Source: an uncultured Bacteroidales bacterium
GTDB lineage: Bacteria; Bacteroidota; Bacteroidia; Bacteroidales; GCA-2748055
Length of the DNA stretch: 64,000 nt
Reading direction: 5' to 3'
Assembly: GCA_963764345.1 (NCBI GenBank)
Contig: CAVXSF010000033.1
Span: 7,931 to 71,930 of the forward strand
Under the pieces are notes generated by a model that was given only the letters and a program-made list of their open reading frames with translations, searched no databases and was not told where the DNA came from. Shown in pieces: positions 8,418 through 41,780 of this stretch; the stretch's first letter is position 1, and every line of letters starts with the position of its first letter. The translations under genes and the position numbers were made by a program.

Positions 8418-10049
8418 CTACTTTTTATCTTCTGTTTTAGGGTTTTGTTTTACCTTTTCGATGATCTCCTTCAATTCTGAAACTTTATCCGGCATTGCGG
8501 AATACAGGTTTTTAGATTCCGATTCATCATTTCCCAGGTTATAAAGCTGTGGATCAGTGATAAAAGGACCATTTGGATACCAGGTTTCATTCCAGTGAGG
8601 TGTAGCAGCTTCAATATATTTCCATTCTCCTTCTCTTTCCACCATAGCTCCGCTCCCACCCGAGCTGACGGTAAGCGAATTTCGTTTTTGCGGGGCGCTA
8701 TTATCCAGCAGGTTTGAGAGGAAGCTGTAACTATCCTCACCCTCGCCGGAGGTCAGGCTATCACCAAGCAGGTCGGCAAATGTAGCCAGCAGGTCGGTGG
8801 TACTGATCATGTTATGATTAATCATCCCGGGTTTGATCTTTCCGGGCCACCTTACAATGAAGGGAACACGCAATCCGCCTTCCCATGCATCCGATTTAAA
8901 TCCAAGGAAGTCACCAGATGCCTTGTGACCGTAGGTAAGCCATCCGGCTTTCCATGTCGGGTTGCCGTTAGGGTCCTGGTATTGAGGTTTATCGTCATCC
9001 ATGTAATCGTAATAAAACTCTCTGGCCAGGGTTGAATCCTTCTTATACATGTCAAGAGAAATGACCGGATCACCCGGACGCGGTCCATTATCGGATGTCA
9101 CGATAAGGAGGGTATTGTCGAGAGCATGATTCCTGACAAGGGCATCGACGACCTGTTTAACCGACCAGTCGAATTCTTCTACCATATCGCCGCGCAGTCC
9201 GGCCTGGCTTTGACCCTTTGTAATGGTAGGAAGACATGGCCTATGTGGGGCACTCGCCGGAAAATACAGGAAAAGGGGCTGGTCAGCGTCATTCTTAAAA
9301 TGATTGTCCACTACGGCTACAGCTTTCTCAGTCAGGACCCTGTTCACTGTACGGGAATCCCAGTTTGGCGCTTTCTCGCAATTCTCGTCGAAATCGTAAA
9401 CAACGCCCTTGGGTACGGATGGAGCTTCCACGATACTGTCATTTTCAATGAATGCGAAAGGGATCATATTGATCGAGCCTGCCATTCCATAGAAATAATC
9501 GAAGCCTCTGTCATTCGGTCCTCCCTTGATAGGTTTTGAAAAATCGATATAGTCCTGGGACGTCAGATCCCAGGATTTAAAGACGGATTTCTCAGGATTC
9601 GGCGGCGTACTGTCTTTCAGGGCCCAACCCAGGCCGAGGTGCCATTTACCCACACAGGCAGTATAATACCCATTCTTTTTAAGCAGGGAGGCAATGGTTG
9701 TCCTCTTTTCCCTGATCAGGGGCTGTGCATAGTAGGTCAGAACACCAAATTTAAGAGGCGTTCGCCAGGAATAGCGACCCGTAAGAATGCTGTATCGTGA
9801 TGGAGAACATAAAGAGGAAGCCACATAAGCATCAGTAAATTTAACCCCCTGTGAAGCCAGGGTATCAATTTCCGGAGTCCTGATCCTGGTTGCTCCATAA
9901 CAGCTCAGGTCTCCGTAGCCCAGATCATCCGCAACGATGAGAACAATATTCGGTGGCGTTTCCTTTGGTTTTTCCTGGCTACAGGAAAATGGCAGGACAG
10001 CCAGCAGAAGACCGGTTCCTTTCAATACTTTATTTACAATTGAGTTCAT
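8418..10049 (-). CDS. Arylsulfatase (S1 family, Cys-type) lipoprotein
   Basis: IVADDLGYGD, CSPSRYSILTGRY (CxPxR), GKWHLG, SDNG; lipobox PFSC. Confidence 0.92.
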   Translation of the reverse strand: MNSIVNKVLKGTGLLLAVLPFSCSQEKPKETPPNIVLIVADDLGYGDLSCYGATRIRTPEIDTLASQGVKFTDAYVASSLCSPSRYSILTGRYSWRTPLKFGVLTYYAQPLIREKRTTIASLLKKNGYYTACVGKWHLGLGWALKDSTPPNPEKSVFKSWDLTSQDYIDFSKPIKGGPNDRGFDYFYGMAGSINMIPFAFIENDSIVEAPSVPKGVVYDFDENCEKAPNWDSRTVNRVLTEKAVAVVDNHFKNDADQPLFLYFPASAPHRPCLPTITKGQSQAGLRGDMVEEFDWSVKQVVDALVRNHALDNTLLIVTSDNGPRPGDPVISLDMYKKDSTLAREFYYDYMDDDKPQYQDPNGNPTWKAGWLTYGHKASGDFLGFKSDAWEGGLRVPFIVRWPGKIKPGMINHNMISTTDLLATFADLLGDSLTSGEGEDSYSFLSNLLDNSAPQKRNSLTVSSGGSGAMVEREGEWKYIEAATPHWNETWYPNGPFITDPQLYNLGNDESESKNLYSAMPDKVSELKEIIEKVKQNPKTEDKK

Positions 10050-10444
10050 AACAGGTATGTATTTAAATAATTTATTTAAACAGCTGAGAGGCGAGAACTG
10101 AGGGTAGAATATTGCGACCGGGGGCGAAAGCTCTCAAATTGCTAACTTTACCGGGGCCGGTGAACGATGTACCCACAGATCTCGGGGTGACATCGGGTTG
10201 AAACAAAAGTTGGCAACCTGACTTATCCTGAAACACCCTGATATGAACTTTTATAAAAGACAGATTCATGGTTGACTTCCCCTCTTAAAATTCTCATTAC
10301 ACACTTCTTTCATTCGATTAAGAGATGCCGGGAGAACAAGACCAATAACCACAAAACACTCCGGAATTTGAGAATTACCGGAGGATTCCGAAGTGTTTTA
10401 CGGTTATTTGAAAGGGTTAATCAGGCCGCTAACTACAAGTTAAA

Positions 10445-11515
10445 CTACCGTTTTATAAACTTAAGCGTTCTGTTTTCAACTCTGACAAAGTAGCACCCGG
10501 CATGCAGATCATCAATATTCAACGTAGTTTCTATACCGGTAGACTTGAAAGTCTTAATGATTCTTCCTGTAACGTCCATCAGGTTGATATCTGAAATTTT
10601 TCCGTTACTCAGGCCCCTGATCACGATCTGATCCCTGGCCGGGTTAGGATAGAGATTGATCCTTTCGGCAGCGGGAGTATTGATGCCGGTAACCACAGTA
10701 AAGGTAATGGTATAAGACTGGGTGGTGGTGCCGTCTTCGGCAGTAACAAGTACCGTGGCCGTTCTGGCGGATTCATCCCCATTCAGATCTGTAGCCTGGG
10801 TTATGTCAACTGTTGCGGAAGTATCATTTAAAACAGCGTCGACAGCCGGCACATCCGTAGTTCCCTGGGGAAGGTATACATCATAATGATAAACATCCGG
10901 ACTGAAATCGGCAACAGTTCCGCCCTCGATGGTCAGGTCTGAAAGCGTAGCGTCCGTACTCGGCACATTTACCATCACACTGGCATCATCAATATAAATC
11001 ACTTCTGAGCCGTCAAAATTTTCCTGGTCGTAAAATCTGAAGAACACATCAACGGTATCGGTCACAAAGCTGGTCCATTGCCAATTGAATTGCTGCCATT
11101 CATTTACAATGGTATTATCAGTATGGAGAGCGGCGCTGCTGGAGAAGGTATATGCTCCCGGCCCGAATCCGACTACCCATGCAAAATACACGTTGCCTTC
11201 AGTGTTATAAGACCAGACGGAGAAATCGTATGTAACACTGGAGTCGGCGATGAATACAAAATGTTCCCCAAAATCGGTATTCGCCTTATTCCCGGTTACG
11301 GTCACTGCTGCAGAATGAGTTCCTCCATGAACGATAGATGACTCCACCGCGACAGATATTCCGTCTTTTTTGATATCCCAGCCTGCCAATGTGTCGGCCA
11401 CCACGGTTTCCATATCCCCGTTAACGAGGAGATTTTGAGCAATGGTGTTCTTGTTGAAGCCAAAAGACAGAATCACCATTGTCAGTAAAATCCATTTTGT
11501 GTAATTTTTTTTCAT
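10445..11515 (-). CDS. T9SS-secreted protein: CBM4/9-like domain + cadherin-like beta-sandwich + type A CTD
   Basis: Signal peptide; NLLVNGDME...YIDDASV; DATLSDLT..TAEDG..TQSYTI; YPNPARD...YFVRV...KFIK. Confidence 0.75.
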   Translation of the reverse strand: MKKNYTKWILLTMVILSFGFNKNTIAQNLLVNGDMETVVADTLAGWDIKKDGISVAVESSIVHGGTHSAAVTVTGNKANTDFGEHFVFIADSSVTYDFSVWSYNTEGNVYFAWVVGFGPGAYTFSSSAALHTDNTIVNEWQQFNWQWTSFVTDTVDVFFRFYDQENFDGSEVIYIDDASVMVNVPSTDATLSDLTIEGGTVADFSPDVYHYDVYLPQGTTDVPAVDAVLNDTSATVDITQATDLNGDESARTATVLVTAEDGTTTQSYTITFTVVTGINTPAAERINLYPNPARDQIVIRGLSNGKISDINLMDVTGRIIKTFKSTGIETTLNIDDLHAGCYFVRVENRTLKFIKR

Positions 11516-11552
11516 GAGTGATGATTTTAAGTTGAATATTAACGATTTAAGT

Positions 11553-11584
11553 CAAAATTATGAATAATTACATATTTAAACAAA
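11553..11584 (-). promoter_or_regulatory. Bacteroidetes housekeeping promoter for the 11515 gene
   Basis: Minus strand TAATTTTG (11553-11560) fits TAnnTTTG; TTTG (11581-11584) lies 20 bp upstream. Confidence 0.6.
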
Positions 11585-11594
11585 CGTTTGCGCA
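11577..11594. promoter_or_regulatory. Candidate LacI operator
   Basis: TAAACAAACGTTTGCGCA, 15/18 to palindrome TGCACAAACGTTTGTGCA; overlaps the -33 element. Confidence 0.65.
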
Positions 11595-11655: not shown

Positions 11656-12864
11656 TCACATTGATATAATATACCTGGATTCTACAGACCCGTCTGAATA
11701 AATAATCCTGATCAGTTTTAAGCCTTTTCCCCCGAAGGGCAAATAAACCAAACCCGTTGCTGAGGTATGGTTTCCTGCTACGATTTTCTCTATCGTCCCT
11801 GAGACGGAGTAAATAATGACCCTATCTATCGCATTATCCGAGCTAATATTCAAATGACCGGAGCTCGGATTGGGATAAACAAGTGTCGCACCGGATTTGG
11901 AAGACGGGGAAGATTTGGTGGCATCCACGGGGTAGAATCCGATATCCGCAAGGAAGGATTTCATAAAAAAGAGGCAATAGATGAAATCGCGATGACCTGG
12001 TCCGCTTTTATTTTCGTTGTAATTCCCAAAACCGTGGCCCCTGCCGTCGAAGATAAATAGCCGGTCGTAGCCGTTCATTGCATGATAAGCCGAATCCCAT
12101 GCAATCATGCCTGTCAACGGAGCCAGCTTGTCAGCGGAGCCGCTCATGACCAGTGAAGGTATGTTCCGGCAAGATGAATCAACATGCTGAAGCGGTGACA
12201 ATGTAAGCCAATCGTCGCCCAGAAGATTATGCCCGTCGAGCCATCCTTCTTCTGACAGGTCAAATACAGGGTTTTGGAGGATCAACGCATCGGGAATCGA
12301 AGATATATCAAAATTTTCATTCGGATCTTCTACCCCTTTGATAAAGGCAGTTGATGCAGCCAGCTGCCCTCCGGCACTCATCCCCGCGGCAACGATACGG
12401 TTCGCGTCGATATTCAGCACTGCGGCATGTTGACGGATGTACCGTATGGCTGCTTTAGCATCCTGAACTTCATCATAGGGAGTAACGGCAGAAGAATCAT
12501 CAAATACCCGGTACTTTACAGCCATGGTAGTGAAGCCCAGACCGGAAAGATACCAGGCATATTGCTTATACTGATTCAGAGCCCTGGTCTGCCACCCCCC
12601 TCCATGAAAAAAAACGATACAGGAATGAGCATCACCAGCGGTTTTACTATCGAAAATACTAAGGGTCAGCTCAATCCAACCCAGATCCCGGTAGGTTACA
12701 ACCTTATCCCACCCGGGGACGTTATCTAAACCGGCCGGATTAAAAGAAGCGAAAAATGCTATCGCCTGTGGATCATTCGCAAATATAGAATCCGCATCAT
12801 ATCCCTGTGGAAATAATGGAAGGCTAATTTGCACCAACAGAATGTACAGACAAATTTTCATCAT
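11656..12864 (-). CDS. Alpha/beta hydrolase (carbohydrate esterase-like) with T9SS CTD
   Basis: FHGGGW, GMSAGG nucleophile elbow, D..GHGF; VYPNPSSG C-terminal domain. Confidence 0.82.
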   Translation of the reverse strand: MMKICLYILLVQISLPLFPQGYDADSIFANDPQAIAFFASFNPAGLDNVPGWDKVVTYRDLGWIELTLSIFDSKTAGDAHSCIVFFHGGGWQTRALNQYKQYAWYLSGLGFTTMAVKYRVFDDSSAVTPYDEVQDAKAAIRYIRQHAAVLNIDANRIVAAGMSAGGQLAASTAFIKGVEDPNENFDISSIPDALILQNPVFDLSEEGWLDGHNLLGDDWLTLSPLQHVDSSCRNIPSLVMSGSADKLAPLTGMIAWDSAYHAMNGYDRLFIFDGRGHGFGNYNENKSGPGHRDFIYCLFFMKSFLADIGFYPVDATKSSPSSKSGATLVYPNPSSGHLNISSDNAIDRVIIYSVSGTIEKIVAGNHTSATGLVYLPFGGKGLKLIRIIYSDGSVESRYIISM

Positions 12865-12942: not shown

Positions 12943-14493
12943 CTAAAATTTAATTTCGTAAGGTTTGTCATCATAGATCACCGCATATTCCAGTTCAATA
13001 TGGGCGTAATCGGAAGGATTTAAAATTTTAATTACGACCTTATGTTTACCTCTTGGGAGCTGGTATTTCCAGAACGGGGTAAATCTCCTCTGATTGGTTG
13101 CAGTAGGAAGTTTAGCCTTCTCAACCAGTTTACCATCGATATACATTTCGGTATTAAACACGTAGTTCCTGGGACCGTAATCGGTTATATTCGGGGGGCC
13201 GGCAAGGGCAAAACCAATGCCTTCGAATTCGAAGCTGATCTGGTCCCTGGTTTGTACCGGGATAATCCGGGCTACCGGATAATGGCCTTCAAAGGATACT
13301 TCAAGGGGTACGGTTTTAGGTTTCTGAAACTGGATCACCACATTATCCTCATTCACTTTACCTCCGTTTCTGAGGATCATCTTCTCAGCATGTCTGAATG
13401 ACATATCGTATGCATCAGTCAGCGATATCTTTGTGCCCATGAATGGTATGTTTTCCACTTTATCCAGTCCCTGCGTCCAGAAAGCTGGAATTTTTTTAAA
13501 CCCTACAATGGCTGCCAGTACTCCTCCTGCTGACCCGGGATTACAGTCGGCGTCATCCCCGCAACGGGTAGCTATTTCGTAGGTCCGGGTAAAATCGCCG
13601 TGTCCGTACAGCAATCCCGTAACAACATGTGCAGCATTGATTTTGGCATCGATATCGAATGGTTCAAATACCCCTAAAGGCGAGCCTATGTCTGAGGCCC
13701 ATTTACGGTTAGTTTTGTACCAGTTTGTTTTCCAGTCGTCAGGGTTTTCATCGTACCACTTCAATACATCATTAATGCACCGGGCAAATTTACTTTCTGA
13801 AGGAATCGCCGACACTGCCTCCCTGATGATAGGCTCAATATCATCGATACTGCCGGATACCAGGGCAAGGGAATAGAGACCTGCCATGAATACCCCTCCG
13901 TAATATCCGTCACCATAATTCATGATGTGTCCGACTTTATCACATATCTGTAAGGCTGAATTTGTCATGCCCGGAGACATGATTCCCGCAAAGTCGGCTT
14001 CAATCTGGAAATCGATATCGTCGGCACATGGATTATTCAGCCAGTAACCCGATTCCGGGGGTTTTAGCCCGTTAAGGATATTATAACGGGCCGTCTGGTT
14101 GGCAAACCACAGTTTATAATCGGCTTGCGCAAACGATTCCGCAAACGTCATCGCTGGTGCATCGATGCCATGATCTTCAATGACCTGCATAAAGGTAAGG
14201 TCCATATATACATCATCATAGGTTCCCGGTCGCTCCCGGTATTCAACGGCCATGGATGAGTCATTCCAGGCCAGCTTATGATAGTCCCTGATCATGGTTG
14301 AATTGTACTTAAATTCCGAAGGAACGCCAAAGGTGACCCCAATGGTCTGTGCCGCCCAGGCACCTTTGATCTTATCTTTCAGTACATCTTTGGAAATGGT
14401 GATGGTATTGCCCGTTTTTGTCATCCCGTTGTTCTGGGCATAAGCGATACCTCCAAAGGCAATGATTGCAAATAAGAGAACCAAAGTTTTCAT
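12943..14493 (-). CDS. Exported ADP-ribosylglycohydrolase-family protein
   Basis: Signal peptide; DKIKGAWAAQTIGV, YDDVYMD, DDIDFQIE, CGDDADCNP motifs; extra C-terminal beta domain. Confidence 0.8.
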   Translation of the reverse strand: MKTLVLLFAIIAFGGIAYAQNNGMTKTGNTITISKDVLKDKIKGAWAAQTIGVTFGVPSEFKYNSTMIRDYHKLAWNDSSMAVEYRERPGTYDDVYMDLTFMQVIEDHGIDAPAMTFAESFAQADYKLWFANQTARYNILNGLKPPESGYWLNNPCADDIDFQIEADFAGIMSPGMTNSALQICDKVGHIMNYGDGYYGGVFMAGLYSLALVSGSIDDIEPIIREAVSAIPSESKFARCINDVLKWYDENPDDWKTNWYKTNRKWASDIGSPLGVFEPFDIDAKINAAHVVTGLLYGHGDFTRTYEIATRCGDDADCNPGSAGGVLAAIVGFKKIPAFWTQGLDKVENIPFMGTKISLTDAYDMSFRHAEKMILRNGGKVNEDNVVIQFQKPKTVPLEVSFEGHYPVARIIPVQTRDQISFEFEGIGFALAGPPNITDYGPRNYVFNTEMYIDGKLVEKAKLPTATNQRRFTPFWKYQLPRGKHKVVIKILNPSDYAHIELEYAVIYDDKPYEIKF

Positions 14494-14566: not shown

Positions 14567-17230
14567 TTATTGTTTAATAAATTTCATCGTATGATCCTCG
14601 TCGAGAACAAGAATATAAAGGCCGGGATTGAGTGAAGACACTACAATAGACGTCCCTTTTCCAGCCAATAATAGGTTTCCGGTAGCACTATAAACCATGT
14701 ATCGCGCTGAAGGTTTACTTCCGGTGATAAATAATATATCCGATACGGGGTTAGGATAAATCCCTATGATTTTCCCCGGGATGTTCACCGGCACATAAGT
14801 ATCGGGGTTTTCAGCCTCCGGCAAAAACACAGGTGTTTCAAGGTATTGTGTCTGCATCCCTGTCACGGTTAACCAGTCCGGGGGGCCGATCTGAACATCA
14901 TCGATGTACATCACGGCATTCAGGTTAAAGCCACGGAGTTTCAGTTGGTAATGACCTGACAAATCATGATCGATTGTTCTCGTAAAACTGTAGCCGGCCC
15001 AGTCGCGTGTAAGTGAAGCTTCACCGAACAGGAGGGTATCCAGGTTGTCGGCGTCCTGAATAAACGGGATCAGCCTTGCCCCGGAAATATTGGCTTTTGC
15101 CATGAACCGGATGGTCACCGTATTGCCAAGGCTCAAATGGAATTTCTCATTATCCTGAATAACGTATGATTCATCGCCACCAAGGTCTGTGACCACAGAT
15201 TTGAGTCCCGCGGAGCTATCCACACCGGTTTCGGGATCCAGCCTGACAATAAGGTTTGTATTTCCCGGTACCGCTACCCATCCTCCACTTTCCATATCTC
15301 CGTTCGTGATATAATTGGTATTGGTCAGCAATTGATGGTTGAACACGACACTGTCAAAAACGAAACCACTGAGGAATTCATCCGGGTCTTCTCCCTTGAT
15401 CTCATTCACGAAACTTGTGTTCATCGGCATTTGTACATTCCAGTTCTTCATCACCAGACCGTGAATGTGATCATGTGAATATGGATCGGGAGTGATCTTG
15501 AATACTTTGGGAATGGGATTTTCGGTCACGACATCCTCTATGAGCCAGTTTTCCTGGAGGTCTGATTTTCCGGGGCTTTTATAGTGATTTCCAACATCAC
15601 ACAACAAGGCGGAATTGAAGCCGGGCTTGTCCCATTCCGCATGAAGTACATCAATCCTGCTGAGCCTGACCCCCCTGGAGGTTGAGCCTCCGACAGCGCC
15701 GCCCCAGCTCATCTGAATAATACCCCCATTGTCAAGCTGCCAGACAACGATATCCGACCATGTTATCGAATCGCGGTAAACTTTTATGGCGTCATCATTG
15801 GCCCAGACGAAACATTTGGATACCGAAGAGCCTGCATATGCGGCAATCCCGTCACAGTTCCAGACCCAGCCTCCGACTACTTTGGTATAATTCACCGTAT
15901 TATGAGTACCAATCAGCCTGACCGCGAAATATTTCGGATCGGCAATAACCAGCCCTTCAAGTGTAATATTGTTACTTCCGTTAATAGCTTCCACACAATG
16001 GGACACCCTGTAGTTGAGCCGGGCAGAAGAAAGCACACCCCTGCCGAAGATCCTGACGCCGGGGTTTCCGTCCATGACCAGCGTGCCATATACCCAGGAT
16101 CCATCTTCAAAATAGACGTTCTTTATATGGAACGGGACGTGAAAAACACCAATGTCATGAATTCCCTTTTTAAAATAAATACCGGTGAAGGATGCAGGAA
16201 TATCAGACACATCTGCGGCAGTTGCCTCATTCAGAACCAGATAAGAAGGATCGGCCGTATCGGGAATATCCGTTTCAGGCGGATCGGCAAAAAGGAGGAG
16301 CCCATTTTTGTAGCCGTTTTCCCCAACCTCGACGGAATATTGAGCAGGTTCCCTGATAGTAAAAGTGATCAAATCCCCGTTCACAGTCGGAGTTACGCCA
16401 TACCTGGAAGGCAGGATCCTTACAGTCTGTCCGCTGACCGGCACTTTCCCTGTATCGGTAATCCGCACCTGGACCGTAACCGGATCATCGACCGTAAATT
16501 TGGCCCAGTTTATTGTCCTGCCTGCAAATATGCCCAACGGGGTTTGATCTTTTGTGGACATTCCCTGGTATCCCGGAGAATAAACCGGACAAGCATGCCT
16601 GAAAACATTGAGGCGCCGCAGGGAGTCATCCTGACCGATACTAACATCATAAATGTCGGACTGAGGAACTCCGCCATATTCATCAGGTCCAATCCTTACA
16701 TTATCGATCGAGATGGTTCCGGTGTTGTATCCTCTGAATTTGACTTTATAGTTATCGGATGATGCTGTGGATATTACTGCCGTGAAACTGTATTGTTTCC
16801 AGTCGGTGGAAAGATAAGCATCACCAAAATTCATCCATTCGAGGTTATCCGATTCCTGTATCCAGGGTTGCAGTCTCAGTCCTTCAACAGTACTCTTTGC
16901 CTGGAAACTGACGGAAATGAGGACATTCTGATCCAGGTGAAACACATCTTCACAACGGATAATATAATAGGTATCGCCTCCCATATCGTTAATTACGGAT
17001 ACCATGGCCGTACTGCCATCCATGCCCTGGCCGGCTTCAAAGGTACTGGCAAGATCGGTATTTCGCGGCACGTCCGCCCAACCTCCGTTCTCCATATCTC
17101 CCGAACTGATCAGGTCAGATGTCTGGGCCATCAAAGCCGTTCCCTGCATGATGACAAGGATGAGGTAAAGTAAAATTTTCACCATTCTGTTACTTGTTTT
17201 GTACTTCGTTAAAGCCGGTACGTCCGGCAT
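14567..17230 (-). CDS. GH49-like beta-helix glycoside hydrolase flanked by two CBM4/9-like modules, with T9SS CTD
   Basis: WNCDG...ANDDAIK...VWQLDNGGIIQMSWG resembles the GH49 catalytic region; GDMExGGW repeats at both ends; IYPNPVSD CTD. Start may be the second Met (MVKILL). Confidence 0.68.
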   Translation of the reverse strand: MPDVPALTKYKTSNRMVKILLYLILVIMQGTALMAQTSDLISSGDMENGGWADVPRNTDLASTFEAGQGMDGSTAMVSVINDMGGDTYYIIRCEDVFHLDQNVLISVSFQAKSTVEGLRLQPWIQESDNLEWMNFGDAYLSTDWKQYSFTAVISTASSDNYKVKFRGYNTGTISIDNVRIGPDEYGGVPQSDIYDVSIGQDDSLRRLNVFRHACPVYSPGYQGMSTKDQTPLGIFAGRTINWAKFTVDDPVTVQVRITDTGKVPVSGQTVRILPSRYGVTPTVNGDLITFTIREPAQYSVEVGENGYKNGLLLFADPPETDIPDTADPSYLVLNEATAADVSDIPASFTGIYFKKGIHDIGVFHVPFHIKNVYFEDGSWVYGTLVMDGNPGVRIFGRGVLSSARLNYRVSHCVEAINGSNNITLEGLVIADPKYFAVRLIGTHNTVNYTKVVGGWVWNCDGIAAYAGSSVSKCFVWANDDAIKVYRDSITWSDIVVWQLDNGGIIQMSWGGAVGGSTSRGVRLSRIDVLHAEWDKPGFNSALLCDVGNHYKSPGKSDLQENWLIEDVVTENPIPKVFKITPDPYSHDHIHGLVMKNWNVQMPMNTSFVNEIKGEDPDEFLSGFVFDSVVFNHQLLTNTNYITNGDMESGGWVAVPGNTNLIVRLDPETGVDSSAGLKSVVTDLGGDESYVIQDNEKFHLSLGNTVTIRFMAKANISGARLIPFIQDADNLDTLLFGEASLTRDWAGYSFTRTIDHDLSGHYQLKLRGFNLNAVMYIDDVQIGPPDWLTVTGMQTQYLETPVFLPEAENPDTYVPVNIPGKIIGIYPNPVSDILFITGSKPSARYMVYSATGNLLLAGKGTSIVVSSLNPGLYILVLDEDHTMKFIKQ

Positions 17231-28274: not shown

Positions 28275-28303
28275 GACAAATGCTTTATTAAGTTTTGTTT
28301 TAG

Positions 28304-33480: not shown

Positions 33481-33498
33481 TGAACAAACGTTTGTGCA
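33481..33498. promoter_or_regulatory. Candidate LacI operator upstream of susC operon
   Basis: TGAACAAACGTTTGTGCA, 17/18 to the palindrome. Confidence 0.72.
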
Positions 33499-33669
33499 AT
33501 ATAATAAATTTAATCTACACAAGAATTCTTTTATCAATTTTTTTTGCCTCCTCATAGTATATTCCCTCTAACCTTACCCGTTTATCGGGTTAATGTGGCA
33601 GAAAACGTAGTCCTGCAAAAAAGCAGGTAAAAAAGGGAGTTTACCGCTCAGGTGAAGAGGTAACATTTA

Positions 33670-35304
33670 TTAATCCTGATCCCCTCTTGCATAATCGATC
33701 CATTTCATCGACGGCTTATATTCAGGATTTTCGGGCATCATTTGGGCATTCACATCCTTTCTCCATTGATGGAGGATTTTTCTAAGTTCATCGACTTTCC
33801 CCGGATTCGTCCCGGAAAGGTCGTGTTGTTCCTGAGGGTCATTCTTCAGGTCGAACAGTTGGACCGTGTTGTTTTCGAAGTATTCGATCAGCTTATAATC
33901 GCCAAGGCGAACAGCCCCGCAAGGACTTTGCTGACCATGGTTGCTGTAGTGAGGAAAATGCCAGAACAAGGGTCTGTCTTCCGCTGTCTTTTCCCCCTGG
34001 ACGAATGGAACCAGACTTTCTCCGTCGAGGACATATTTAGCCGGATCAAACTTAATTCCAACCATTTCCAGGATAGTCGGAAAGAAATCAACGCTAATAA
34101 CAGGAACGTCACAAACGGTTCCTGTCTGGCCTGACTTAGGCCATTTGATGAGAAGAGGTTCACGTATTCCGCCTTCATAGAACCAGCCTTTCCCTCCCCT
34201 GAGGGGCAGATTGGATGTTGAGAAGGCTTTATTCAGCCGGGTTTTTGCGATTTTTCGCTTTGGATTCCCAAAATTGGCTGCCGACATACCTCCGTTATCA
34301 GAGAAAAAGATGAGGATGGTGTTATCTTCGAGACCAAGTCTTTTCAGTTCAGCCCTGATCCTTCCAACGCTTTCATCAACACTTTCCACCATCGCAGCAA
34401 ACTCCACGTTATCCTGATTTTGTTTAATCTTAACTGTCCTGTCGGGCAACAGACTGTACCCTTTGAAGGCATCTTCACCGATCATCCGGTCGAGTTCCCC
34501 GCGGGATAGTGGACTGGGTGAATCCGGATTTCCTTCGAGAATAAAAGGGGCTCCTTTGGATGGAGGTTCAGATTCCAGTTTTTCCTGGTATTTTTCAACC
34601 AGGTCGGGTCGTCCCATGATGGGGTCGTGTACGGCAAAGTGCGCCAGGTAGATGAAGAAAGGCTTATCCTTGTTTTTATCAATATATTTTATGGTTTCAT
34701 CGGTCAGGCGGTCGGTAAGGTATTCCCCTTTGGGAGCATCTTCAAGGCCTTTCATATGATAAGGGGCAAAATATGTTCCGTTAGGCCAGCCTTTGTTCCA
34801 CTGGGGGATATGAAGATCAAAGCCCTGTCTATGCGTGGAAGCGGAATCCTCTCCGAGATGCCATTTGCCGAATATAGCTGTCTGATAACCATTTTCTTTC
34901 ATCACTTCCGGCAGGGTTGTTATATCGTAAGGCAAATGTTGGTTTATCTCAGCATTTTCAAGCTCCTGAAAAGGATAATTCTTACGACCCGGCAACCAGT
35001 CGGTTAAATGAAGGCGGGCCGGATATTTGCCTGTAATGATACTTGCCCTGGTGGGTGAACATACAGAGCAGGCTGCATAGGCCTGGGTGAATTTTACACT
35101 TTCCTCCGCCAGTTTGTCTATATTGGGTGTATTATAAAAGCTGCTTCCGTAACACCCGATATCACTCCAGCCAAGGTCATCCACCAGGATAAACAGGACA
35201 TTTGGTTTATCCTGTTTCCGGCCGCCACCGTTGTCTGTCTGAAAGGCTGTTGTGAGGCCTGCGAGGCCCAGACCCAGTCCCAGTGTTAAAATATCCTTAT
35301 TCAT
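33670..35304 (-). CDS. Sulfatase (S1 family, Cys-type), exported
   Basis: ILVDDLGWSD, CSPTRASIITG, GKWHLG, AHFAVH.P, FSDNGG, YEGGIREP. Confidence 0.92.
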   Translation of the reverse strand: MNKDILTLGLGLGLAGLTTAFQTDNGGGRKQDKPNVLFILVDDLGWSDIGCYGSSFYNTPNIDKLAEESVKFTQAYAACSVCSPTRASIITGKYPARLHLTDWLPGRKNYPFQELENAEINQHLPYDITTLPEVMKENGYQTAIFGKWHLGEDSASTHRQGFDLHIPQWNKGWPNGTYFAPYHMKGLEDAPKGEYLTDRLTDETIKYIDKNKDKPFFIYLAHFAVHDPIMGRPDLVEKYQEKLESEPPSKGAPFILEGNPDSPSPLSRGELDRMIGEDAFKGYSLLPDRTVKIKQNQDNVEFAAMVESVDESVGRIRAELKRLGLEDNTILIFFSDNGGMSAANFGNPKRKIAKTRLNKAFSTSNLPLRGGKGWFYEGGIREPLLIKWPKSGQTGTVCDVPVISVDFFPTILEMVGIKFDPAKYVLDGESLVPFVQGEKTAEDRPLFWHFPHYSNHGQQSPCGAVRLGDYKLIEYFENNTVQLFDLKNDPQEQHDLSGTNPGKVDELRKILHQWRKDVNAQMMPENPEYKPSMKWIDYARGDQD

Positions 35305-35353: not shown

Positions 35354-36256
35354 CTACGACACCACCTCCTTAAGGAAAGGGATCGATGTGGAGGCACCCA
35401 GTCTTGTGACCGAGATAGAGGCTGCGTTGTTGGCCAGGCGAACTGCTTCCTTCAGCGACTCTCCCCTGGCCAGGGAAACCGCCAGGAAGCCATTAAACGT
35501 ATCACCGGCAGCGGTGGTATCAACCACGCTTACCTTATTTCCGTCCTGTATGCCCAGCTGTCCGTTATTTGAAAACAGGACTCCATTTTCTCCAAGGGTA
35601 ATAATGATGGTATTCAGTCCCAACCCTTTCAAAGCATTGATAAGTTCGGCATTTCCGACCTCTTCACCATCCATAAAGGCAATTTTTGCCGCCTCCTGTT
35701 CATTGGGTGTAATAATGGTGACGAGTTTCAGTACTTCGGGATCCAGGTACCGGGCAGGTGCAGGATTGAGAATAACCGGAATATTGTGTCCGGAAGTAAT
35801 CCGTATCGTGCTGTACACTGTTTCCACCGGGATTTCAAGTTGGAGAAGCACCATATCAGCGCTTTTAATCACCTCACTGAGGTTCTCAATGTCTTCAGGC
35901 ATCAGGTGACTGTTTGCCCCGGGAGCAACGGTTATGCTGTTTTCACCCGAATCGGACACATTTATCAAAGCCACCCCTGAGGTGGTATTTTCTACGAATT
36001 TGATATATGAAGTATCTATTCCTTCCTTATCCAATATTTCCAGGGCATTCTTTCCAAAAGTATCCTTCCCGAGGCAGGTAAGGAAAACAACATCACCTCC
36101 TGCCCTCGCGGAAGCAATTGCCTGGTTGGCTCCCTTCCCTCCGTTGACCATATGGAATTGCCCTCCGAGTACAGTTTCTCCCGGTACCGGGAGGTGAGGT
36201 ACTTTAATGATCATGTCGGTGTTCGAACTTCCAATTACAACTATACGTGGTTTCAT
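35354..36256 (-). CDS. rbsK: Ribokinase
   Basis: VVIGSSNTDM..LP.PGETV, GGKGANQAIA, LLQLEIP, TPNEQEA, DTTAAGDTFNG. Confidence 0.9.
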   Translation of the reverse strand: MKPRIVVIGSSNTDMIIKVPHLPVPGETVLGGQFHMVNGGKGANQAIASARAGGDVVFLTCLGKDTFGKNALEILDKEGIDTSYIKFVENTTSGVALINVSDSGENSITVAPGANSHLMPEDIENLSEVIKSADMVLLQLEIPVETVYSTIRITSGHNIPVILNPAPARYLDPEVLKLVTIITPNEQEAAKIAFMDGEEVGNAELINALKGLGLNTIIITLGENGVLFSNNGQLGIQDGNKVSVVDTTAAGDTFNGFLAVSLARGESLKEAVRLANNAASISVTRLGASTSIPFLKEVVS

Positions 36257-36276
36257 ATACTGTTCTGTTTGTAGGA

Positions 36277-37278
36277 TCAATAAACTCTGGCTGCGATGAT
36301 GAAGGCAAGCCCGATGATATAGGAGAGGAACATAAGAAACAGCAGGGTATTCACATTTTTCACCCCTTTAAATTCCTTCCATATGAATACACCCCAAAAT
36401 GCAGCGATGAGCGTGGCTCCCTGTCCGAGACCGTAGGATATGGCAAATCCGGCCTGGCCTGAAGCAATAATATTCAGCGTCATCCCAAGGCTCCAGATGG
36501 CCCCACCCAGTATACCAATCATATGCAGGCTTATATTTCCTTTGGTGAAGTAATCTTTATAAGTTGCTTTCTCTCCTGAGACAGGCTTATACATAAAATA
36601 TGTGTTCCAGATGAAATTCGAGAGGATCAGCCCGACGGAAAAAATTACAGATGCTGAATAAGGTGTAAATTTCCCGGCCTCAGGCATGTCAAAATGAGTT
36701 ATCATGGAGCCTGCAACAAAATAGTAGAAAAACCCCATCAGGATACCGGCCCCTATCGAGATAAAAATACCTTTTGCCGATGTCTTGCCTTCACTTGACG
36801 ATTTTTTCCGATAGGCCAGTGCATCAAGAACGATTGCCACAGTAACCATGATAACACCGAGGAACAAGATCACCGGGTTTCCCACTGGTTTTGCAATGTA
36901 ATTCGTTACGACTCCAATGACCAGGGCAAGACCTATTCCGAGAGGAAAGGCAACCGCCATCCCAGCCATATCGATAGCCACAACCAGGAGGATATTGGCA
37001 AGATTAAAAACGATCCCGCCAAGGAGTGCAAGCCCGAAAGATGAGCCTGAAGCCTGCCGCAGGTCTTCTATAAAACCTCTGCCTTCTGTCCCCGAACTTC
37101 CAAAAGTAAAAGCCAGAATGAGAGAGAGTATAAAGACGCCAATGGCATAATCCCAGTAAAACAATTGAAAAGCCCAGGTTTTGGAGGCAAGCTTCTGCGT
37201 ATTTGCCCATGATCCCCAGCAAAGCATTGTGACGATGCAGAGTATCACGGCCCAGGGGTAGGAATTTACAATGACCAT
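36277..37278 (-). CDS. DMT-superfamily sugar (ribose-type/GRP, ureide-permease-like) transporter
   Basis: About 10 TM helices; MLCWGSWANTQK, FYWDY, SYGLGQGATLIAAFWGVFIWKEF; adjacent to rbsK. Confidence 0.75.
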   Translation of the reverse strand: MVIVNSYPWAVILCIVTMLCWGSWANTQKLASKTWAFQLFYWDYAIGVFILSLILAFTFGSSGTEGRGFIEDLRQASGSSFGLALLGGIVFNLANILLVVAIDMAGMAVAFPLGIGLALVIGVVTNYIAKPVGNPVILFLGVIMVTVAIVLDALAYRKKSSSEGKTSAKGIFISIGAGILMGFFYYFVAGSMITHFDMPEAGKFTPYSASVIFSVGLILSNFIWNTYFMYKPVSGEKATYKDYFTKGNISLHMIGILGGAIWSLGMTLNIIASGQAGFAISYGLGQGATLIAAFWGVFIWKEFKGVKNVNTLLFLMFLSYIIGLAFIIAARVY

Positions 37279-37296: not shown

Positions 37297-37314
37297 TGCT
37301 CTAACGTTTGTGCA
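37297..37314. promoter_or_regulatory. Candidate LacI operator upstream of transporter-rbsK
   Basis: TGCTCTAACGTTTGTGCA, 16/18 to the palindrome. Confidence 0.68.
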
Positions 37315-37336: not shown

Positions 37337-38377
37337 TCAATTAATTTCATTTAAATTTTTTACTGATTTTCTGATAATCAGTGTGGTTTTAAGTTTCATG
37401 CTGACCGGCTTCACCTTGAAACCCTTATTTTCAATGAGCTTTGTTATGACACTCACTGCAAGCTGGCCCAGCTCACTCTTTTTTTGTTCAATGGTAGTTA
37501 GAGGTGTTCCCAGGTAAGCTGAGTACGGTTGCTCATCATAGGAGATCAGGGAAACATCCTCGGGAATGGACAGTCCCATTTCACTTAAAGCCTGTATTAC
37601 GCCAAGTGAAATCAAGTTGCTCAATGCAAAAATAGCTGTCGGAGTATTATCGACACTGTAAAGAATCTGGGTTTGTTTATACCCGTTCTCGGTGCTGAAA
37701 TCTTCTCCGGAAATTAAGGAATGGTCTACGTTTATATGATTTTTCTTCAAAGCGTCGACATATCCCATAACCCTTTCCTTACTTGGCTGAGAGTCTTTTA
37801 TTCCCTGGATACAGGCGATCTTTCTGTGCCCCATTGAGATCAGGTGATTCACTGCATCGAAAGCTCCCTGGTAGTTATCGGAAGTGATATATGGAAGATT
37901 CATCCCAGGCGAGTACCTGTCCACGATAACCAGGGGAAGACCAGATTCATAGATCCGGATGAGGTGATCAAAATTAGTACCGACGGGTGCAATGATTATG
38001 CCTTCAACCTTATGTCCAAGCAAGAGATTGATGAGTTCTTTCTCAACGGGCAATTCTTCCCGGCTGTCGCATAGAAAAATGGAAAAACCTTTAAGACGGG
38101 CCTCCAGTTCAATGCTCTTGGCAATATCAGCAAAGAAGGGATTAGCAATATCCGGAATGATCAATCCCAGTGTCTCTGTTTTATCGGTTTTTAATCCGCG
38201 TGCAATCTTGTTCGGGATGTAATTGTGTTCCTTTGCTGCATCCAAAACGCGCTGCTGCGTGGAGGAACTAATCCTGTATGTCTCTGCTTTTCCGTTCAGG
38301 ACACGTGAAACTGTTGTAATCGAAAGCCCAAGTAAATCAGCTAAACCACGAATATTATTAACACTTTTGCTACCCAT
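37337..38377 (-). CDS. LacI-family transcriptional regulator
   Basis: IRGLADLLGLSITTVSRVLNG HTH, YIPNKIARGL hinge, IIPDIANPFF, VSLISYD. Confidence 0.95.
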   Translation of the reverse strand: MGSKSVNNIRGLADLLGLSITTVSRVLNGKAETYRISSSTQQRVLDAAKEHNYIPNKIARGLKTDKTETLGLIIPDIANPFFADIAKSIELEARLKGFSIFLCDSREELPVEKELINLLLGHKVEGIIIAPVGTNFDHLIRIYESGLPLVIVDRYSPGMNLPYITSDNYQGAFDAVNHLISMGHRKIACIQGIKDSQPSKERVMGYVDALKKNHINVDHSLISGEDFSTENGYKQTQILYSVDNTPTAIFALSNLISLGVIQALSEMGLSIPEDVSLISYDEQPYSAYLGTPLTTIEQKKSELGQLAVSVITKLIENKGFKVKPVSMKLKTTLIIRKSVKNLNEIN

Positions 38378-38574: not shown

Positions 38575-38613
38575 CAAAATTAATCCATCCTGTACTGCAC
38601 AAACCTTTTCGCA
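38575..38613 (-). promoter_or_regulatory. Candidate lacI promoter with overlapping operator
   Basis: TAATTTTG on minus strand (38575-38582); TGCACAAACCTTTTCGCA (38596-38613, 15/18) covers a TTTG 17 bp upstream. Confidence 0.5.
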
Positions 38614-38764
38614 AATTTAAACATTAATTCTTATTAGTCAATTTTTTTTCATCATATCTGAACAGGATCAATGTTTGTGGATAAACAGCTTTCAGGTAAA
38701 GATCAAAGTCTTACATAATGATTATCAATTTATTGATTCCATCCAAAAATAGAAAAATCAATAG

Positions 38765-38782: not shown

Positions 38783-39308
38783 ATTAAGCCGGGAAAATCG
38801 TGAAAGGTTGAAAAAGCTGTGTATATCTTTTCATCCATTACAACAGTCCGTTCATAAAGCCAGATAAGGGATTATATCAACCTGCGATGTTAGAGACTTC
38901 CATACCACCCTCCTGCTCCGTACTACTGGGTGCTTCAATCAGGGATTTAGTACAGTCCGAACGGTAAGCTCATGAAGATCCAACCAATCCCGAAACGGAT
39001 GCTTTTTCTGCTCTGTTTCCCATCTTCTGCTTTCTCCTGGTCAGAATTTCCGGGAAGCGCAAGAAAATTTACCAGTCACCCTGCAACATGAATAATGCTT
39101 ACGATCAGCACAGTATCGTTTAATATTAATGAACAGGATTGAAAAATATGGGAAGGATTATCAGAAAATTTTTGCCAATCGTTTCAATACACGCTGTAAC
39201 AAACTCAAAATATTTTCATACTTTTAAGTTCATTCAGATCACAAACAAATGAAATCCGACATCCTATCATTCCTCATCCAATTCCAGTTAAAACCTAAAT
39301 CCATATCT

Positions 39309-41780
39309 ATGAGCACAAGATATCTTTCCCTCCGAACATCTGTATTCCTGGTTTCAGCCATCCTTTTCCTTACTACAGGATGTAAGAATACGGCTCCCGG
39401 CCACGGTTATTCCCGGGTTCAGGATTTCAACAACGGCTGGCTTTTCTTCGAGGGCACTGCTGAGGGTGCCGAGAATCCGGCTTTCAATGATGCTGACTGG
39501 AGAACCGTCGATCTGCCTCACGACTGGAGTGTTGAAGACTATGCGGTACAGGATTCAACGCACTACGGCCCTTTTTTCAAAGCCATGGAAAATGGTCACG
39601 ATGTCGGCTACCTCAGGGGCGGGACGGGCTGGTACCGGAAATCATTTACCGTTCCTCCTTCAGAAAGAAATAAACAGGTGATCCTGAATTTCGACGGTGT
39701 GCAGTCGGAAGCCACACTCTTCGTGAACGGCAAAGAAGCTGGCAGGCATGTATACGGATATACTCCATTCCATTTTAACATCACTCCCTACCTGAATCAC
39801 AATGGCAAGGCCGAGGTCCTTGCCGTCAAAGTCTACAAGCCGGAACAGAACTCCCGCTGGTTTACCGGAGCCGGCATATACCGTCCGGTGGCAATTTCCT
39901 ACCTCAGCCCGGTTCATATCGCCCCCTGGGGAGTCGGTGTCACCTCTACCCTACCCGGCGACAATAAGGCTGAAATAGTGGTAAAGGTGATGCTCGAAAA
40001 TTCAGATAGCACGGATGCAGATGTCACCCTTCATGCTGATATTTTATCTCAGGCAAAGGTGAAGGTAGCAGAAGCTGAACAGCAAGGCAAGCTGTCTTCC
40101 AATGGTACGGCGTCTTTTGCGCTGACCACGGCGGTTGCCGCCCCTGAGCTCTGGGATATAAGCAAACCGGTGCTGTATACTGCCTCGGTTTCGTTGATGA
40201 GACATGGTGTTGCAATCGATACATACGAAGTACCTTTCGGCATCAGAACCATTCGTTTTTCTGCAGAGGAAGGCTTCCTCCTGAACGGCAAGCCGGTTCT
40301 CATGAAAGGCGGGTGTATGCACCACGACAACGGCCTTCTCGGGGCCGCAGCTTTTAACCGGGCTGAAGAACGCCGTGTTGAGATCATGAAAAAGAACGGC
40401 TTCAATGCCATCCGTACCAGCCATAATCCCCCGTCCAAAGCTTTTCTCGATGCCTGCGACCGTCAGGGTATGCTGGTGATAGATGAAGCTTTCGATTGCT
40501 GGATGAAGGCAAAAAGACCAAACGATTATCATACTCATTTCAACGACTGGTGGAAACACGACCTGGATGAGATGATTCTCAGGGACCGGAACCACCCTTC
40601 TATTGTAATCTGGAGCATCGGAAACGAGATCCAGGAAAGGTCGGATTCTGCAGGACTGGTCATTGCCCGGAACCTGATCAGGGAAATCAAATCTATAGAC
40701 ACGACCCGGCCGATAACCGAAGCGGTCTGTGCGTTCTGGGACAATCCAGGAAAGGACTGGGACTATTCTGCCAATGCCTTCAGTGTGCTCGATGTTTGCG
40801 GGTATAACTATCAGTGGCAGAACTATGAGAATGACCATGCAAAGTACCCTGACCGCATCATGGCGGGTACAGAATCCGTCCCAAAAGAGGCATTTGAAAA
40901 CTGGCGCCTTGTAAAAAGCCAGCCTTACGTTATCGGTGATTTTGTGTGGACGGGATGGGATTACCTGGGAGAAGCCGGGATTGGCCACGCCACCTGGCAG
41001 TCTGATAAACATTTCCAGGATCCGTTTGCGATGCCCTGGCCCTGGTATGTCTCTAACTGCGGGGATATAGATATCACCGGGCATAAGAAACCACAATCGT
41101 ATTACCGTGATGTGGTTTGGGGTGAGAGCAACCTCGAAATGGCAGTTCACGAACCTGCCCCCGACGGCAAGTTTGAGATGGTCTTTTTCTGGGGCTGGCC
41201 ACAGGAAGTTCAGAGCTGGAACTGGCCGGGCGAAGAAGGCAAACCACTGAAGGTTACCGTGTATTCTTCCTATCCGAAGGTGAGACTGGAACTGAATGGC
41301 ACGGTGCTCGGTGAACAGGAAATTCCGGCTGATTCGGCATATAAGGCACGGTTTACCGTCCCCTATCAACCCGGCGAACTTAAAGTCAGTGGCATTGACA
41401 ACGGAGAAGTGAAGGAAACGAAAGTATTTCAAACCAGCGGCCAGGTTGTCCGCCTGAAACTCGAACCGGAGAGGACAACTATCCGGGCCGACAGAGGGGA
41501 GATCGTTTATATTAATGTGACGGCGGTTGACAGCGCGGGAAATATTGTTCCGGATGCATCCTTACCGGTTCGTGTGAAAATTTCCGGTGAAGGAGAACTC
41601 CTGGCTGCAGGAAATGCCTCCCCGCAGGCAGAAGGCAGCCTTCAGGATAACAGCTTTACTTTGTTCCGGGGAAGAGGACAGATCATTGTTCGATCAACCG
41701 GTAAAGCCGGAAGTATAATGGTTGAAGCTACGCCGGAGGGCGTTGAGAATGCGAAGACTGAGGTTAGGGCGGGGGATTGA
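39309..41780 (+). CDS. GH2 beta-galactosidase-like lipoprotein
   Basis: LPHDW, FDGVQS, GAGIYRPV, KGGCMHHDNG, IRTSHNP, RNHPSIVIWSIGNE, GDFVWTGWDYLGE; lipobox TTGC. Confidence 0.92.
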   Translation: MSTRYLSLRTSVFLVSAILFLTTGCKNTAPGHGYSRVQDFNNGWLFFEGTAEGAENPAFNDADWRTVDLPHDWSVEDYAVQDSTHYGPFFKAMENGHDVGYLRGGTGWYRKSFTVPPSERNKQVILNFDGVQSEATLFVNGKEAGRHVYGYTPFHFNITPYLNHNGKAEVLAVKVYKPEQNSRWFTGAGIYRPVAISYLSPVHIAPWGVGVTSTLPGDNKAEIVVKVMLENSDSTDADVTLHADILSQAKVKVAEAEQQGKLSSNGTASFALTTAVAAPELWDISKPVLYTASVSLMRHGVAIDTYEVPFGIRTIRFSAEEGFLLNGKPVLMKGGCMHHDNGLLGAAAFNRAEERRVEIMKKNGFNAIRTSHNPPSKAFLDACDRQGMLVIDEAFDCWMKAKRPNDYHTHFNDWWKHDLDEMILRDRNHPSIVIWSIGNEIQERSDSAGLVIARNLIREIKSIDTTRPITEAVCAFWDNPGKDWDYSANAFSVLDVCGYNYQWQNYENDHAKYPDRIMAGTESVPKEAFENWRLVKSQPYVIGDFVWTGWDYLGEAGIGHATWQSDKHFQDPFAMPWPWYVSNCGDIDITGHKKPQSYYRDVVWGESNLEMAVHEPAPDGKFEMVFFWGWPQEVQSWNWPGEEGKPLKVTVYSSYPKVRLELNGTVLGEQEIPADSAYKARFTVPYQPGELKVSGIDNGEVKETKVFQTSGQVVRLKLEPERTTIRADRGEIVYINVTAVDSAGNIVPDASLPVRVKISGEGELLAAGNASPQAEGSLQDNSFTLFRGRGQIIVRSTGKAGSIMVEATPEGVENAKTEVRAGD

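Follow-up and report, generated by a model that had tools for sequence, protein, structure and literature searches.

An uncultured Bacteroidales bacterium carries, in the 64,000-nucleotide stretch of contig CAVXSF010000033.1 analysed here (the window), a gene cluster that encodes a ribokinase, a sugar permease, an exported enzyme of the ADP-ribosylglycohydrolase (ARH) fold, two sulfatases, two SusC/SusD pairs and a series of further exported proteins. It is a real cluster under a single repressor of the LacI family, 8418-41780, and we read it as a polysaccharide utilization locus (PUL) of the ribose utilization (rus) type. A metagenome-assembled genome (MAG) from Microflora Danica has a 99%-identical ARH protein and ~95%-identical DNA.

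Gene content of the locus

Pfam and NCBIfam scans over the open reading frame (ORF) listing of the window served to verify the genes, and every gene named in a first-pass annotation of this DNA was found at 8418-41780. Read from 38377 to 8418, the minus strand carries the genes for LacI, permease, ribokinase, sulfatase 2, SusC1, SusD1, SusC2 and SusD2, and then, in the same run, those for a BT_3987-like/DUF5627 lipoprotein, a GH127 enzyme (glycoside hydrolase, GH, family 127), a DUF4838 lipoprotein, a metallophosphoesterase, a GH49-like protein, the ARH-fold enzyme, an esterase, a cadherin-like protein and sulfatase 1. A GH2 gene lies on the plus strand, divergent from LacI, while a frameshifted GH78 gene converges on sulfatase 1. 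The genes flanking the locus are unrelated, with housekeeping or efflux functions. All enzymes of the locus have a signal peptide or lipoprotein box at the N-terminus. The features are listed below, the operators without strand; T9SS is the type IX secretion system and CBM a carbohydrate-binding module.

5920..8353, plus strand: GH78 alpha-L-rhamnosidase (Pfam Bac_rhamnosid_N, Bac_rhamnosid6H and Bac_rhamnosid_C; two ORFs)
8418..10049, minus strand: sulfatase 1, Cys-type S1 lipoprotein, S1_15-like (PF00884 183 bits; CSPSR at residue 81)
10445..11515, minus strand: cadherin-like beta-sandwich protein with T9SS sorting domain (PF18962 48 bits, PF12733, TIGR04183)
11577..11594: operator O3, TAAACAAACGTTTGCGCA (operator scan)
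11656..12864, minus strand: alpha/beta-hydrolase esterase, BD-FAE type (PF20434 75.8 bits)
12943..14493, minus strand: exported ARH-fold enzyme (ADP-ribosylglycohydrolase family) with C-terminal beta-sandwich (PF03747 116.6 bits; Sec signal peptide)
14567..17230, minus strand: GH49-like beta-helix enzyme with CBM4-like module and T9SS sorting domain (Protein Data Bank, PDB, dextranase matches; PF18962)
17240..18220, minus strand: metallophosphoesterase lipoprotein, accessory (PF00149 30 bits; GD, GNHD and GH motifs visible)
18465..20084, minus strand: DUF4838 lipoprotein with GH20b-like N-terminus and putative TIM barrel (PF16126 64 bits)
20339..22273, minus strand: GH127-family enzyme, furanosidase-type (PF07944 112 bits, PF20736 85 bits)
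22417..23439, minus strand: BT_3987-like/DUF5627 lipoprotein in the SusE/F position (PF18620, PF08522; lipoprotein signal)
23526..25229, minus strand: SusD-like 2 (PF07980 148.6 bits)
25248..28328, minus strand: SusC-like 2 (TIGR04056 481 bits, cut-off 368)
28304..30076, minus strand: SusD-like 1 (PF07980 142.8 bits)
30090..33296, minus strand: SusC-like 1 (TIGR04056 746.7 bits)
33481..33498: operator O2, TGAACAAACGTTTGTGCA, perfect match, upstream of SusC1 (operator scan)
33612..33627, minus strand: terminator-like hairpin 3' of sulfatase 2, dividing the permease-kinase-sulfatase unit from the SusC1 unit (terminator scan)
33670..35304, minus strand: sulfatase 2, Cys-type S1, S1_16-like (PF00884 201 bits; CSPTR motif)
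35354..36280, minus strand: ribokinase (TIGR02152 348 bits, cut-off 299.65)
36277..37278, minus strand: DMT/GRP-type sugar permease in the RusT position (PF07168, PF06800, PF07857; 4-nt overlap with the kinase start)
37297..37314: operator O1, TGCTCTAACGTTTGTGCA, between LacI stop and permease start (operator scan)
37337..38377, minus strand: LacI-family repressor (PF00356, PF00532, PF13377; helix-turn-helix and periplasmic-binding domains)
38596..38619: weak operator O0, TGCACAAACCTTTTCGCA at 38596-38613, with abutting -7 box, 242 nt upstream of LacI
39249..41780, plus strand: GH2, beta-galactosidase-like (GH2 Pfam domains; NF041462 GalA 594 bits, below the cut-off of 900)

A T9SS type A sorting domain scored above cut-off in the GH49-like and cadherin-like proteins, and the esterase has a weak tail of this kind (PF18962 20.7 bits, below the cut-off of 27). 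The cadherin-like protein is probably a secreted or surface binding protein, the esterase is probably a deacetylase, and the BT_3987-like/DUF5627 lipoprotein is a candidate for surface glycan binding.

A shared operator and the probable transcription units

The operator was found by reading the intergenic spacers, and the window was scanned with TGNACAAACGTTTGTNCA, using 100 shuffles as control. The 18-bp palindrome TGnACAAACGTTTGTnCA had four matches in the window against 0.23 expected, and none of the 100 shuffles gave four. As in the operators of LacI-family repressors, CG is at the centre of the palindrome. Relative to TGNACAAACGTTTGTNCA, O2 before SusC1 has no mismatch, O3 before the cadherin-like gene and O1 between LacI and the permease have two each, and O0 upstream of LacI has three. 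O1, O2 and O3 are the only sites with at most two mismatches in the whole 5.15-Mb genome, a result that bears out the proposal of a LacI-controlled regulon around a core of ribokinase, permease and ARH-fold protein with tandem SusC/D. Two other genomic CAAACGTTTG cores, on C4 and C5, were rejected as regulon members because both lie inside coding regions.

O3 precedes a perfect Bacteroidetes -7 box (TAATTTTG, 11560-11553) by 10-17 nt, and O0 abuts another perfect -7 box (TAAATTTG, 38619-38612, minus strand). O0 is probably the site of LacI autoregulation. The element (TAnnTTTG)CGAAAAGGTTTGYGCA was kept upstream of LacI in loci L072 and L074 of sister species while the spacers around it diverged; in L073 the operator half of O0 was kept and the -7 box is imperfect. 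O1 is conserved in the same sister species (L072 to L074), and O3 is kept in the equivalent position in L002 to L004. An O2-equivalent site precedes SusC in L010, L015, L017, L021, L024, L048 and L058. The same palindrome was present beside every LacI orthologue found in loci of other families (L012, L015, L021, L024, L048, L058 and L075), and a ACAAACGTTTGT core lies beside LacI orthologues, usually in the gap between LacI and SusC, in Dysgonomonadaceae, Saprospiraceae, Cyclobacteriaceae, Chryseolinea, Flammeovirgaceae, Marinifilum and others.

Based on the operator positions and the hairpin after sulfatase 2, the locus is likely divided into three transcription units, namely LacI (autoregulated)-permease-kinase-sulfatase 2, SusC1 to esterase, and the cadherin-like gene with sulfatase 1. 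A perfect -7 box was searched for in the internal gaps and none was found. The sigma-70 promoter and terminator scans gave counts at or below chance, and the hairpin after sulfatase 2 was alone informative.

The first-pass annotation had the whole locus linked by one operator motif. This was borne out at LacI, permease-kinase, SusC1 and the cadherin-like gene, and failed at GH2, where the best candidate near the gene start had six mismatches by eye and was rejected. Since there is no credible operator near its start, GH2 is tied to the locus by synteny and position only. It adjoins LacI in two sister species, divergently in G001 and co-directionally in G003. Octamer arrays and AATCTGTGGTGA follow the GH2 stop (window 41781-42090) and are also found in G003 (L072, in the GH2-LacI spacer); because the repeats follow the GH2 stop in both orientations, the GH2-plus-repeat segment appears to be inverted between species.

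Ribokinase and permease

The kinase was identified as a ribokinase by its equivalog score and by its ribose contacts. In an alignment to 1gqt, it conserves all of the residues that we take to contact ribose in E. coli RbsK (N14, D16, G41, G42, K43, N46, E143 and D255). The permease, beside the kinase, is a putative RusT counterpart by position, and its orthologues (54-66% identity) were found in 18-26 related loci. An IU_nuc_hydro gene of the nucleoside-hydrolase (NH) fold follows the permease in L025, L043, L048 and L067, so that some ribokinase loci have both ARH-fold and NH-fold enzymes.

The same genome has another such pair at C13:258000-277900 (L070), a ribokinase-like kinase with 43% and a permease with 58% identity. 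Its neighbours are two sulfatases, a GH63/MGH1-like hydrolase, an alcohol dehydrogenase and a prokaryotic ketohexokinase, and there is no ARH gene.

Distribution and conserved core

In total, 69 loci were collected, 66 of them with close ARH-fold homologues; the window proteins were mapped onto them and the neighbours were clustered. The main comparison set consisted of the 29 loci with an ARH protein at least 62% identical, four close relatives being excluded. Within this set the ribokinase was found in 22 loci, the permease in 18, a sulfatase 2 orthologue in 19, a sulfatase 1 orthologue in ten, GH127 in eight and the GH49-like protein in seven, while DUF4838, the esterase and GH2 occurred in one locus each. 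The sulfatase 2 orthologues (57-67% identity) are directly adjacent to the ARH gene in about half of their 19 loci. Orthologues of these sulfatases were found in none of the 33 loci with more distant ARH homologues.

Two layouts recur. The compact one (L017, L021, L024 and L058) runs LacI, operator, SusC, SusD, GH127, ribokinase, ARH, sulfatase, permease. The other, of Bacteroidales/Prolixibacteraceae (L005 to L009, L022, L023 and L039, with L076 as an independent example), comprises the GH49-like protein, a second beta-helix protein, an S1_15-like sulfatase, further sulfatases, ribokinase, ARH, an S1_16-like sulfatase and permease. Compact loci of Cytophagales and Chitinophagales (Chryseolinea sp. 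T2, L024; a Flammeovirgaceae MAG, L058) have orthologous genes and the same operator, with identities to the window proteins of 65-70% for ARH, 57-59% for the S1_16-like sulfatase, 47-52% for GH127 and 44-45% for LacI. Compared with them, the window locus has its kinase, permease and sulfatase moved beside LacI and has gained a second SusC/D pair, GH49-like, DUF4838, phosphoesterase, esterase and cadherin-like proteins, the S1_15-like sulfatase, GH2 and GH78. It unites both layouts in rearranged form and is an expanded version of the compact PUL. The window architecture is common to three sister species, with LacI 86-87% identical.

The arrangement in the window might be taken for two or more unrelated neighbouring systems, a ribose uptake cassette (LacI, permease and kinase) next to an independent sulfated-glycan PUL. 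Kinase and permease lie ~20 kb from the ARH gene in the window, the genome has its second kinase-permease pair on C13, and GH2 and GH78 have no operators. We consider this explanation very improbable, given that the identical operator type precedes SusC1 and the cadherin-like unit, that the kinase is found, along with the sulfatase, at most 10 kb from ARH in 22 other loci, 16 of which have kinase and ARH side by side, and that the architecture is conserved in four species.

The presence of an S1_16-like sulfatase with ARH in 19 of the 29 related loci supports the first-pass suggestion of a sulfated polymer. The same annotation had also put forward phosphodiester-linked, teichoic-like, poly(ADP-ribose) and nucleic-acid candidates. 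These depend on the metallophosphoesterase, which was found in two of the 29 loci and, as a truncated copy, in the near-identical MAG L001, and was absent from L002 to L004; since sulfate belongs to the core and phosphate is accessory, they are weak. A target of this kind, such as a polyribosyl-ribitol-phosphate capsule or nucleic-acid products, would have the metallophosphoesterase cut phosphate links and the ARH-fold enzyme act on ADP-ribose-like bonds. It would fit the phosphoesterase lipoprotein itself, whose motifs are mostly intact and whose homologues (62-64% identity) adjoin ARH/sulfatase clusters in L005 and L008, as well as the nearness of the ARH fold to ARH3 and DraG and the growth on nucleosides and ADP-ribose supported by the rus locus of Bacteroides thetaiotaomicron (10.1101/574913). 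It is nevertheless distinctly improbable. The phosphoesterase is missing from 27 of the 29 related loci, Pfam scans gave no nuclease, nucleoside hydrolase or GDPD gene in the locus, and the conserved partners are sulfatases, not phosphatases. In addition, ARH members occur in fusions with CBM-like and glycoside hydrolase modules, and identity to ADP-ribose hydrolases is only 10-15%.

By these counts, the conserved core consists of the ribokinase, the exported ARH-fold enzyme, the S1_16-like sulfatase and the permease, often with GH127 or the GH49-like protein, and the conserved chemical feature is sulfate, not phosphate.

Sulfatases and putative polysaccharide-cleaving enzymes

Each sulfatase carries a C-x-P-x-R motif of the Cys type, and a gene for an anaerobic sulfatase maturase (anSME, 503 bits against a cut-off of 349) is present in the genome. 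The nearest solved relative of sulfatase 2 is 9fo1, named 'k-carrageenan sulfatase S1_16' (E 3.8e-140), and those of sulfatase 1 are 7p26, 6s20 (a GalNAc-6-O-sulfatase) and 9bau/9bas (S1_15B/A), at E 1e-71 to 1e-66; the subfamily labels S1_15 and S1_16 were taken from these nearest PDB entries alone.

The GH49-like protein matched PDB dextranases (6nzs, E 2.9e-21; 1ogm, E 7e-10). D376, D395 and D396 of 1ogm, presumably the GH49 catalytic Asp triad, align with a D and a DD of the window protein. The GH49 N-domain model, the only one in Pfam, scored 20.4 bits against a cut-off of 21.3. We propose that this protein may be a secreted endo-acting depolymerase. In the GH127 enzyme the E-T-C and C-C-P motifs align with 4qjy, the score against the aceric-acid-hydrolase equivalog was 143 bits, below the cut-off of 950, and orthologues (47-60% identity) were found in 8-15 related loci. 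The DUF4838 lipoprotein is a putative accessory glycosidase; its AlphaFold2 (AF2) model, built from a three-sequence alignment, had a predicted local distance difference test (pLDDT) score of 40 and was unusable. Neither DUF4838 nor the phosphoesterase had a match in a PDB sequence search.

This enzyme set brings in a green-algal target, the sulfated xylo-arabino-galactan of Cladophora/Chaetomorpha ("cladophoran") or a similar sulfated galactan or arabinan. The GH49-like protein would then be a sulfated-arabinan endo-hydrolase, GH127, GH2 and GH78 would remove arabinofuranose, galactose and rhamnose, respectively, and the ribose module would serve a minor decoration or mainly act as a sensing hook. 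Polymers of Cladophorales contain arabinose, galactose, xylose, rhamnose and sulfate, a composition that would suit the GH49-like protein, GH127, GH2, GH78 and the two sulfatases, not the ribose genes, and is a lead only. In its favour are the presence of GH127, a beta-galactosidase-like GH2 and GH78, the conservation of the presumed GH49 Asp triad, the Gal/GalNAc-6S (S1_15) and Gal-4S (S1_16) enzymes as nearest relatives of the sulfatases, and the occurrence of the sequence in salt-marsh and soil samples. Ribose is, to our knowledge, no reported component of such polymers, and the compact PULs do without GH49, GH2 and GH78 yet keep ARH, ribokinase, sulfatase and GH127.

In the literature the sole GH49 activity on a sulfated polymer is that of two distant GH49 relatives from Bacteroides plebeius DSM 17135, which cleave the sulfated arabinan (cladophoran) of the Chaetomorpha/Cladophora cell wall (Helbert et al. 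2019, PMC6442616). These enzymes are likewise from Bacteroidales, GH49-related and in a sulfated-polymer context, a likeness by description; the window enzyme differs in its CBM and T9SS tail. Environmental sequences made up all of the best 120 homologues found for the GH49-like protein. P0249 was rejected as a lead to the B. plebeius cladophoran hydrolases because it belongs to another MAG with the same module. On balance we regard a cladophoran-type target as unlikely.

The ARH-fold enzyme

The ARH-fold protein scored 116.6 bits against PF03747 (cut-off 26.2) and bears an N-terminal G..G.P.E motif and a C-terminal GDDADC motif. Its AF2 model (pLDDT 89.6; predicted template modelling, pTM, score 0.90) has an extra C-terminal beta-sandwich, and the Foldseek top matches of the model were DraG and ARH3, with target-normalised TM scores of 0.6-0.77 at 10-15% identity. 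A PDB sequence search gave no match for the protein, and a profile of its homologues gave weak matches to ARH3 and DraG only. E60, D93, D94, D314 and D316 are invariant among 31 homologues, and we take D77/D78, D314/D316 and E41 to be their ARH3 counterparts. The fold and the acidic motifs are common to ARH3, DraG, ARH1 (PF03747) and the window protein. Unlike these enzymes, the latter is exported, has the extra beta-sandwich, is 10-15% identical to them, occurs in glycan loci and has relatives fused to GH modules.

At E <= 1e-30 the family comprised 401 representatives (50% clustering), among which fusions to GH84-like, GH92, GH43, esterase/F5_F8 (CBM32-like), PKD, Laminin_G and FIVAR modules were found. 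P0002, P0012, P0047, P0090 and P0004 are such fusion proteins, with lengths of up to 2390 amino acids. Fusion of this sort is a habit of carbohydrate-active enzymes, not of protein de-ADP-ribosylases, and the large family with its frequent fusion to glycoside hydrolase modules suggests an unclassified glycosidase. Genomic context likewise argues for a glycan substrate, and the enzyme may be a ribose-releasing ribofuranosidase. We tentatively propose, with less than even confidence, that the family is an unclassified group of metal-dependent glycoside hydrolases, most likely D-ribofuranosidases, and that the subclade of the window is obligately paired with an S1_16-like sulfatase on a sulfated glycan with ribose decoration, as yet undescribed, that would come from algae, cyanobacteria or bacteria, with the compact PUL as the minimal system.

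A second full-length ARH-fold paralogue (48% identity) is encoded at C18:37675-39123 (L071:9161-10720), near M14 carboxypeptidase genes and with no ribokinase or SusC/D context.

Frameshifts and neighbouring genes

GH78 is a possible peripheral member of the locus; it is syntenic in L001, L003 and L004, and in L002 it is partial, at the locus edge. Compared with the intact L004 orthologue, its frames switch at 7052-7059 (+1 frameshift). In L001, a 95%-identical MAG, the GH78 indel differs and lies ~80 bp away, DUF4838 is split and the phosphoesterase is truncated. The differing L001 indel and the intact L004 gene point to long-read assembly indels rather than real pseudogenes. In the flank, an AcrB-type RND pump (50085-53259) is split into a 120-amino-acid ORF and a 939-amino-acid ORF starting at profile position 117, probably by another single-base indel.

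In sister species a beta-helix gene of ~475 amino acids (PF13229; L002:14172-15608) lies between the cadherin-like gene and sulfatase 1. It is cleanly absent from the window and from L001, where a 395-bp spacer (10050-10444) is found, and paralogues with 27-32% identity are present elsewhere in the genome.

Discussion

The rus locus of B. thetaiotaomicron (BT2802-BT2809) contains RusR, two ribokinases, SusC/D, a GH, a nucleoside hydrolase and a permease, and 70 rus configurations of up to 36 genes were described across Bacteroidetes (Glowacki et al., bioRxiv 10.1101/574913, later Cell Host & Microbe 2020). The catalogue includes LacI, the second commonest regulator after RusR, as well as ADP-ribosylglycohydrolases, esterases, aryl sulfatases, cpdA-type phosphodiesterases and at least 22 GH families, and ribose induced the eight tested systems 100- to 1000-fold (10.1101/574913). 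The window locus resembles rus in its ribokinase, SusC/D, variable exported enzymes and flanking LacI regulator, and probably in its sugar permease. Where the B. thetaiotaomicron locus has the activator RusR, two kinases, a nucleoside hydrolase with one GH, and one SusC/D pair, the window locus has LacI with four operators, one kinase, the ARH-fold enzyme instead of the nucleoside hydrolase, two SusC/D pairs, T9SS-exported enzymes and two sulfatases. An ARH-like enzyme had been ascribed to the B. thetaiotaomicron locus in the first-pass annotation; such enzymes in fact belong to other rus types (10.1101/574913). The locus belongs to the rus family and, since the catalogue already includes large LacI/ADP-ribosylglycohydrolase/aryl-sulfatase loci of up to 36 genes, is no new kind of system.

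Our preferred reading, to which we assign a probability of about 65%, is that the locus is a LacI-repressed rus-type PUL of an uncultured anaerobic Bacteroidales, most likely digesting a sulfated sugar polymer and salvaging ribose. LacI would bind the four 18-bp palindromes located at its own promoter and before the permease-ribokinase-sulfatase 2 genes, SusC1 and the cadherin-like gene. The T9SS-secreted GH49-like protein with its CBM, the cadherin-like protein and possibly the esterase, to judge from their export signals and catalytic residues, would attack an extracellular sulfated heteroglycan. By family, the DUF5627 lipoprotein and the SusD proteins would bind the fragments, which the two SusC/D pairs would import. 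In the periplasm the S1_15-like and S1_16-like sulfatases would strip sulfate, both presumably matured by the anaerobic maturase, GH127, DUF4838, GH2 and the esterase would trim the chain, and the ARH-fold enzyme would free ribose. The DMT permease would then take up ribose, which the ribokinase would convert to ribose-5-phosphate. By analogy with rus, ribose or ribose phosphate may lift the LacI repression.

Several points weigh against this reading. Regarding the substrate, the solved enzymes closest to the sulfatases have galactose or GalNAc 4- and 6-sulfate as substrates, and the set of GH49, GH127, GH2 and GH78 would fit a green-algal sulfated arabinogalactan, in which ribose is not known. 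We know of no sulfated ribose-bearing polymer and of no characterised ARH-family enzyme that acts on a polysaccharide, and a ribofuranosidase was not mentioned in the papers searched. Regarding the regulation, LacI is about equally distant from CytR (237 bits), RbsR (237 bits) and PurR (224 bits), all scores being below the NCBIfam equivalog cut-offs; GH2 is without an operator, and promoters outside this regulation could be hidden in the internal gaps, 244 and 254 bp long. Public runs with the window sequence were soil and salt-marsh DNA only, with no RNA runs.

The literature search found no combination of GH49, sulfatase and ribokinase. A search for sulfated ribofuranose exopolysaccharides gave nothing relevant, a Psychrobacter capsule containing Ribf being unsulfated. 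The exopolysaccharide of Nostoc commune has pendant D-ribofuranose, which is a lead only.

ARH-bearing rus-type loci occur widely among Bacteroidota from gut, soil and marine habitats, and their natural polymeric substrate is not known. The present analysis defines the conserved core genes and the LacI operator, and shows sulfate, not phosphate, as the conserved feature. It also names Chryseolinea sp. T2 and Marinifilum caeruleilacunae JC070 as cultured bacteria with the compact locus. Should the ARH-fold enzyme turn out to be a glycosidase, a new CAZy family would start with it, and a sulfated glycan that bears ribose would seem to have been overlooked.

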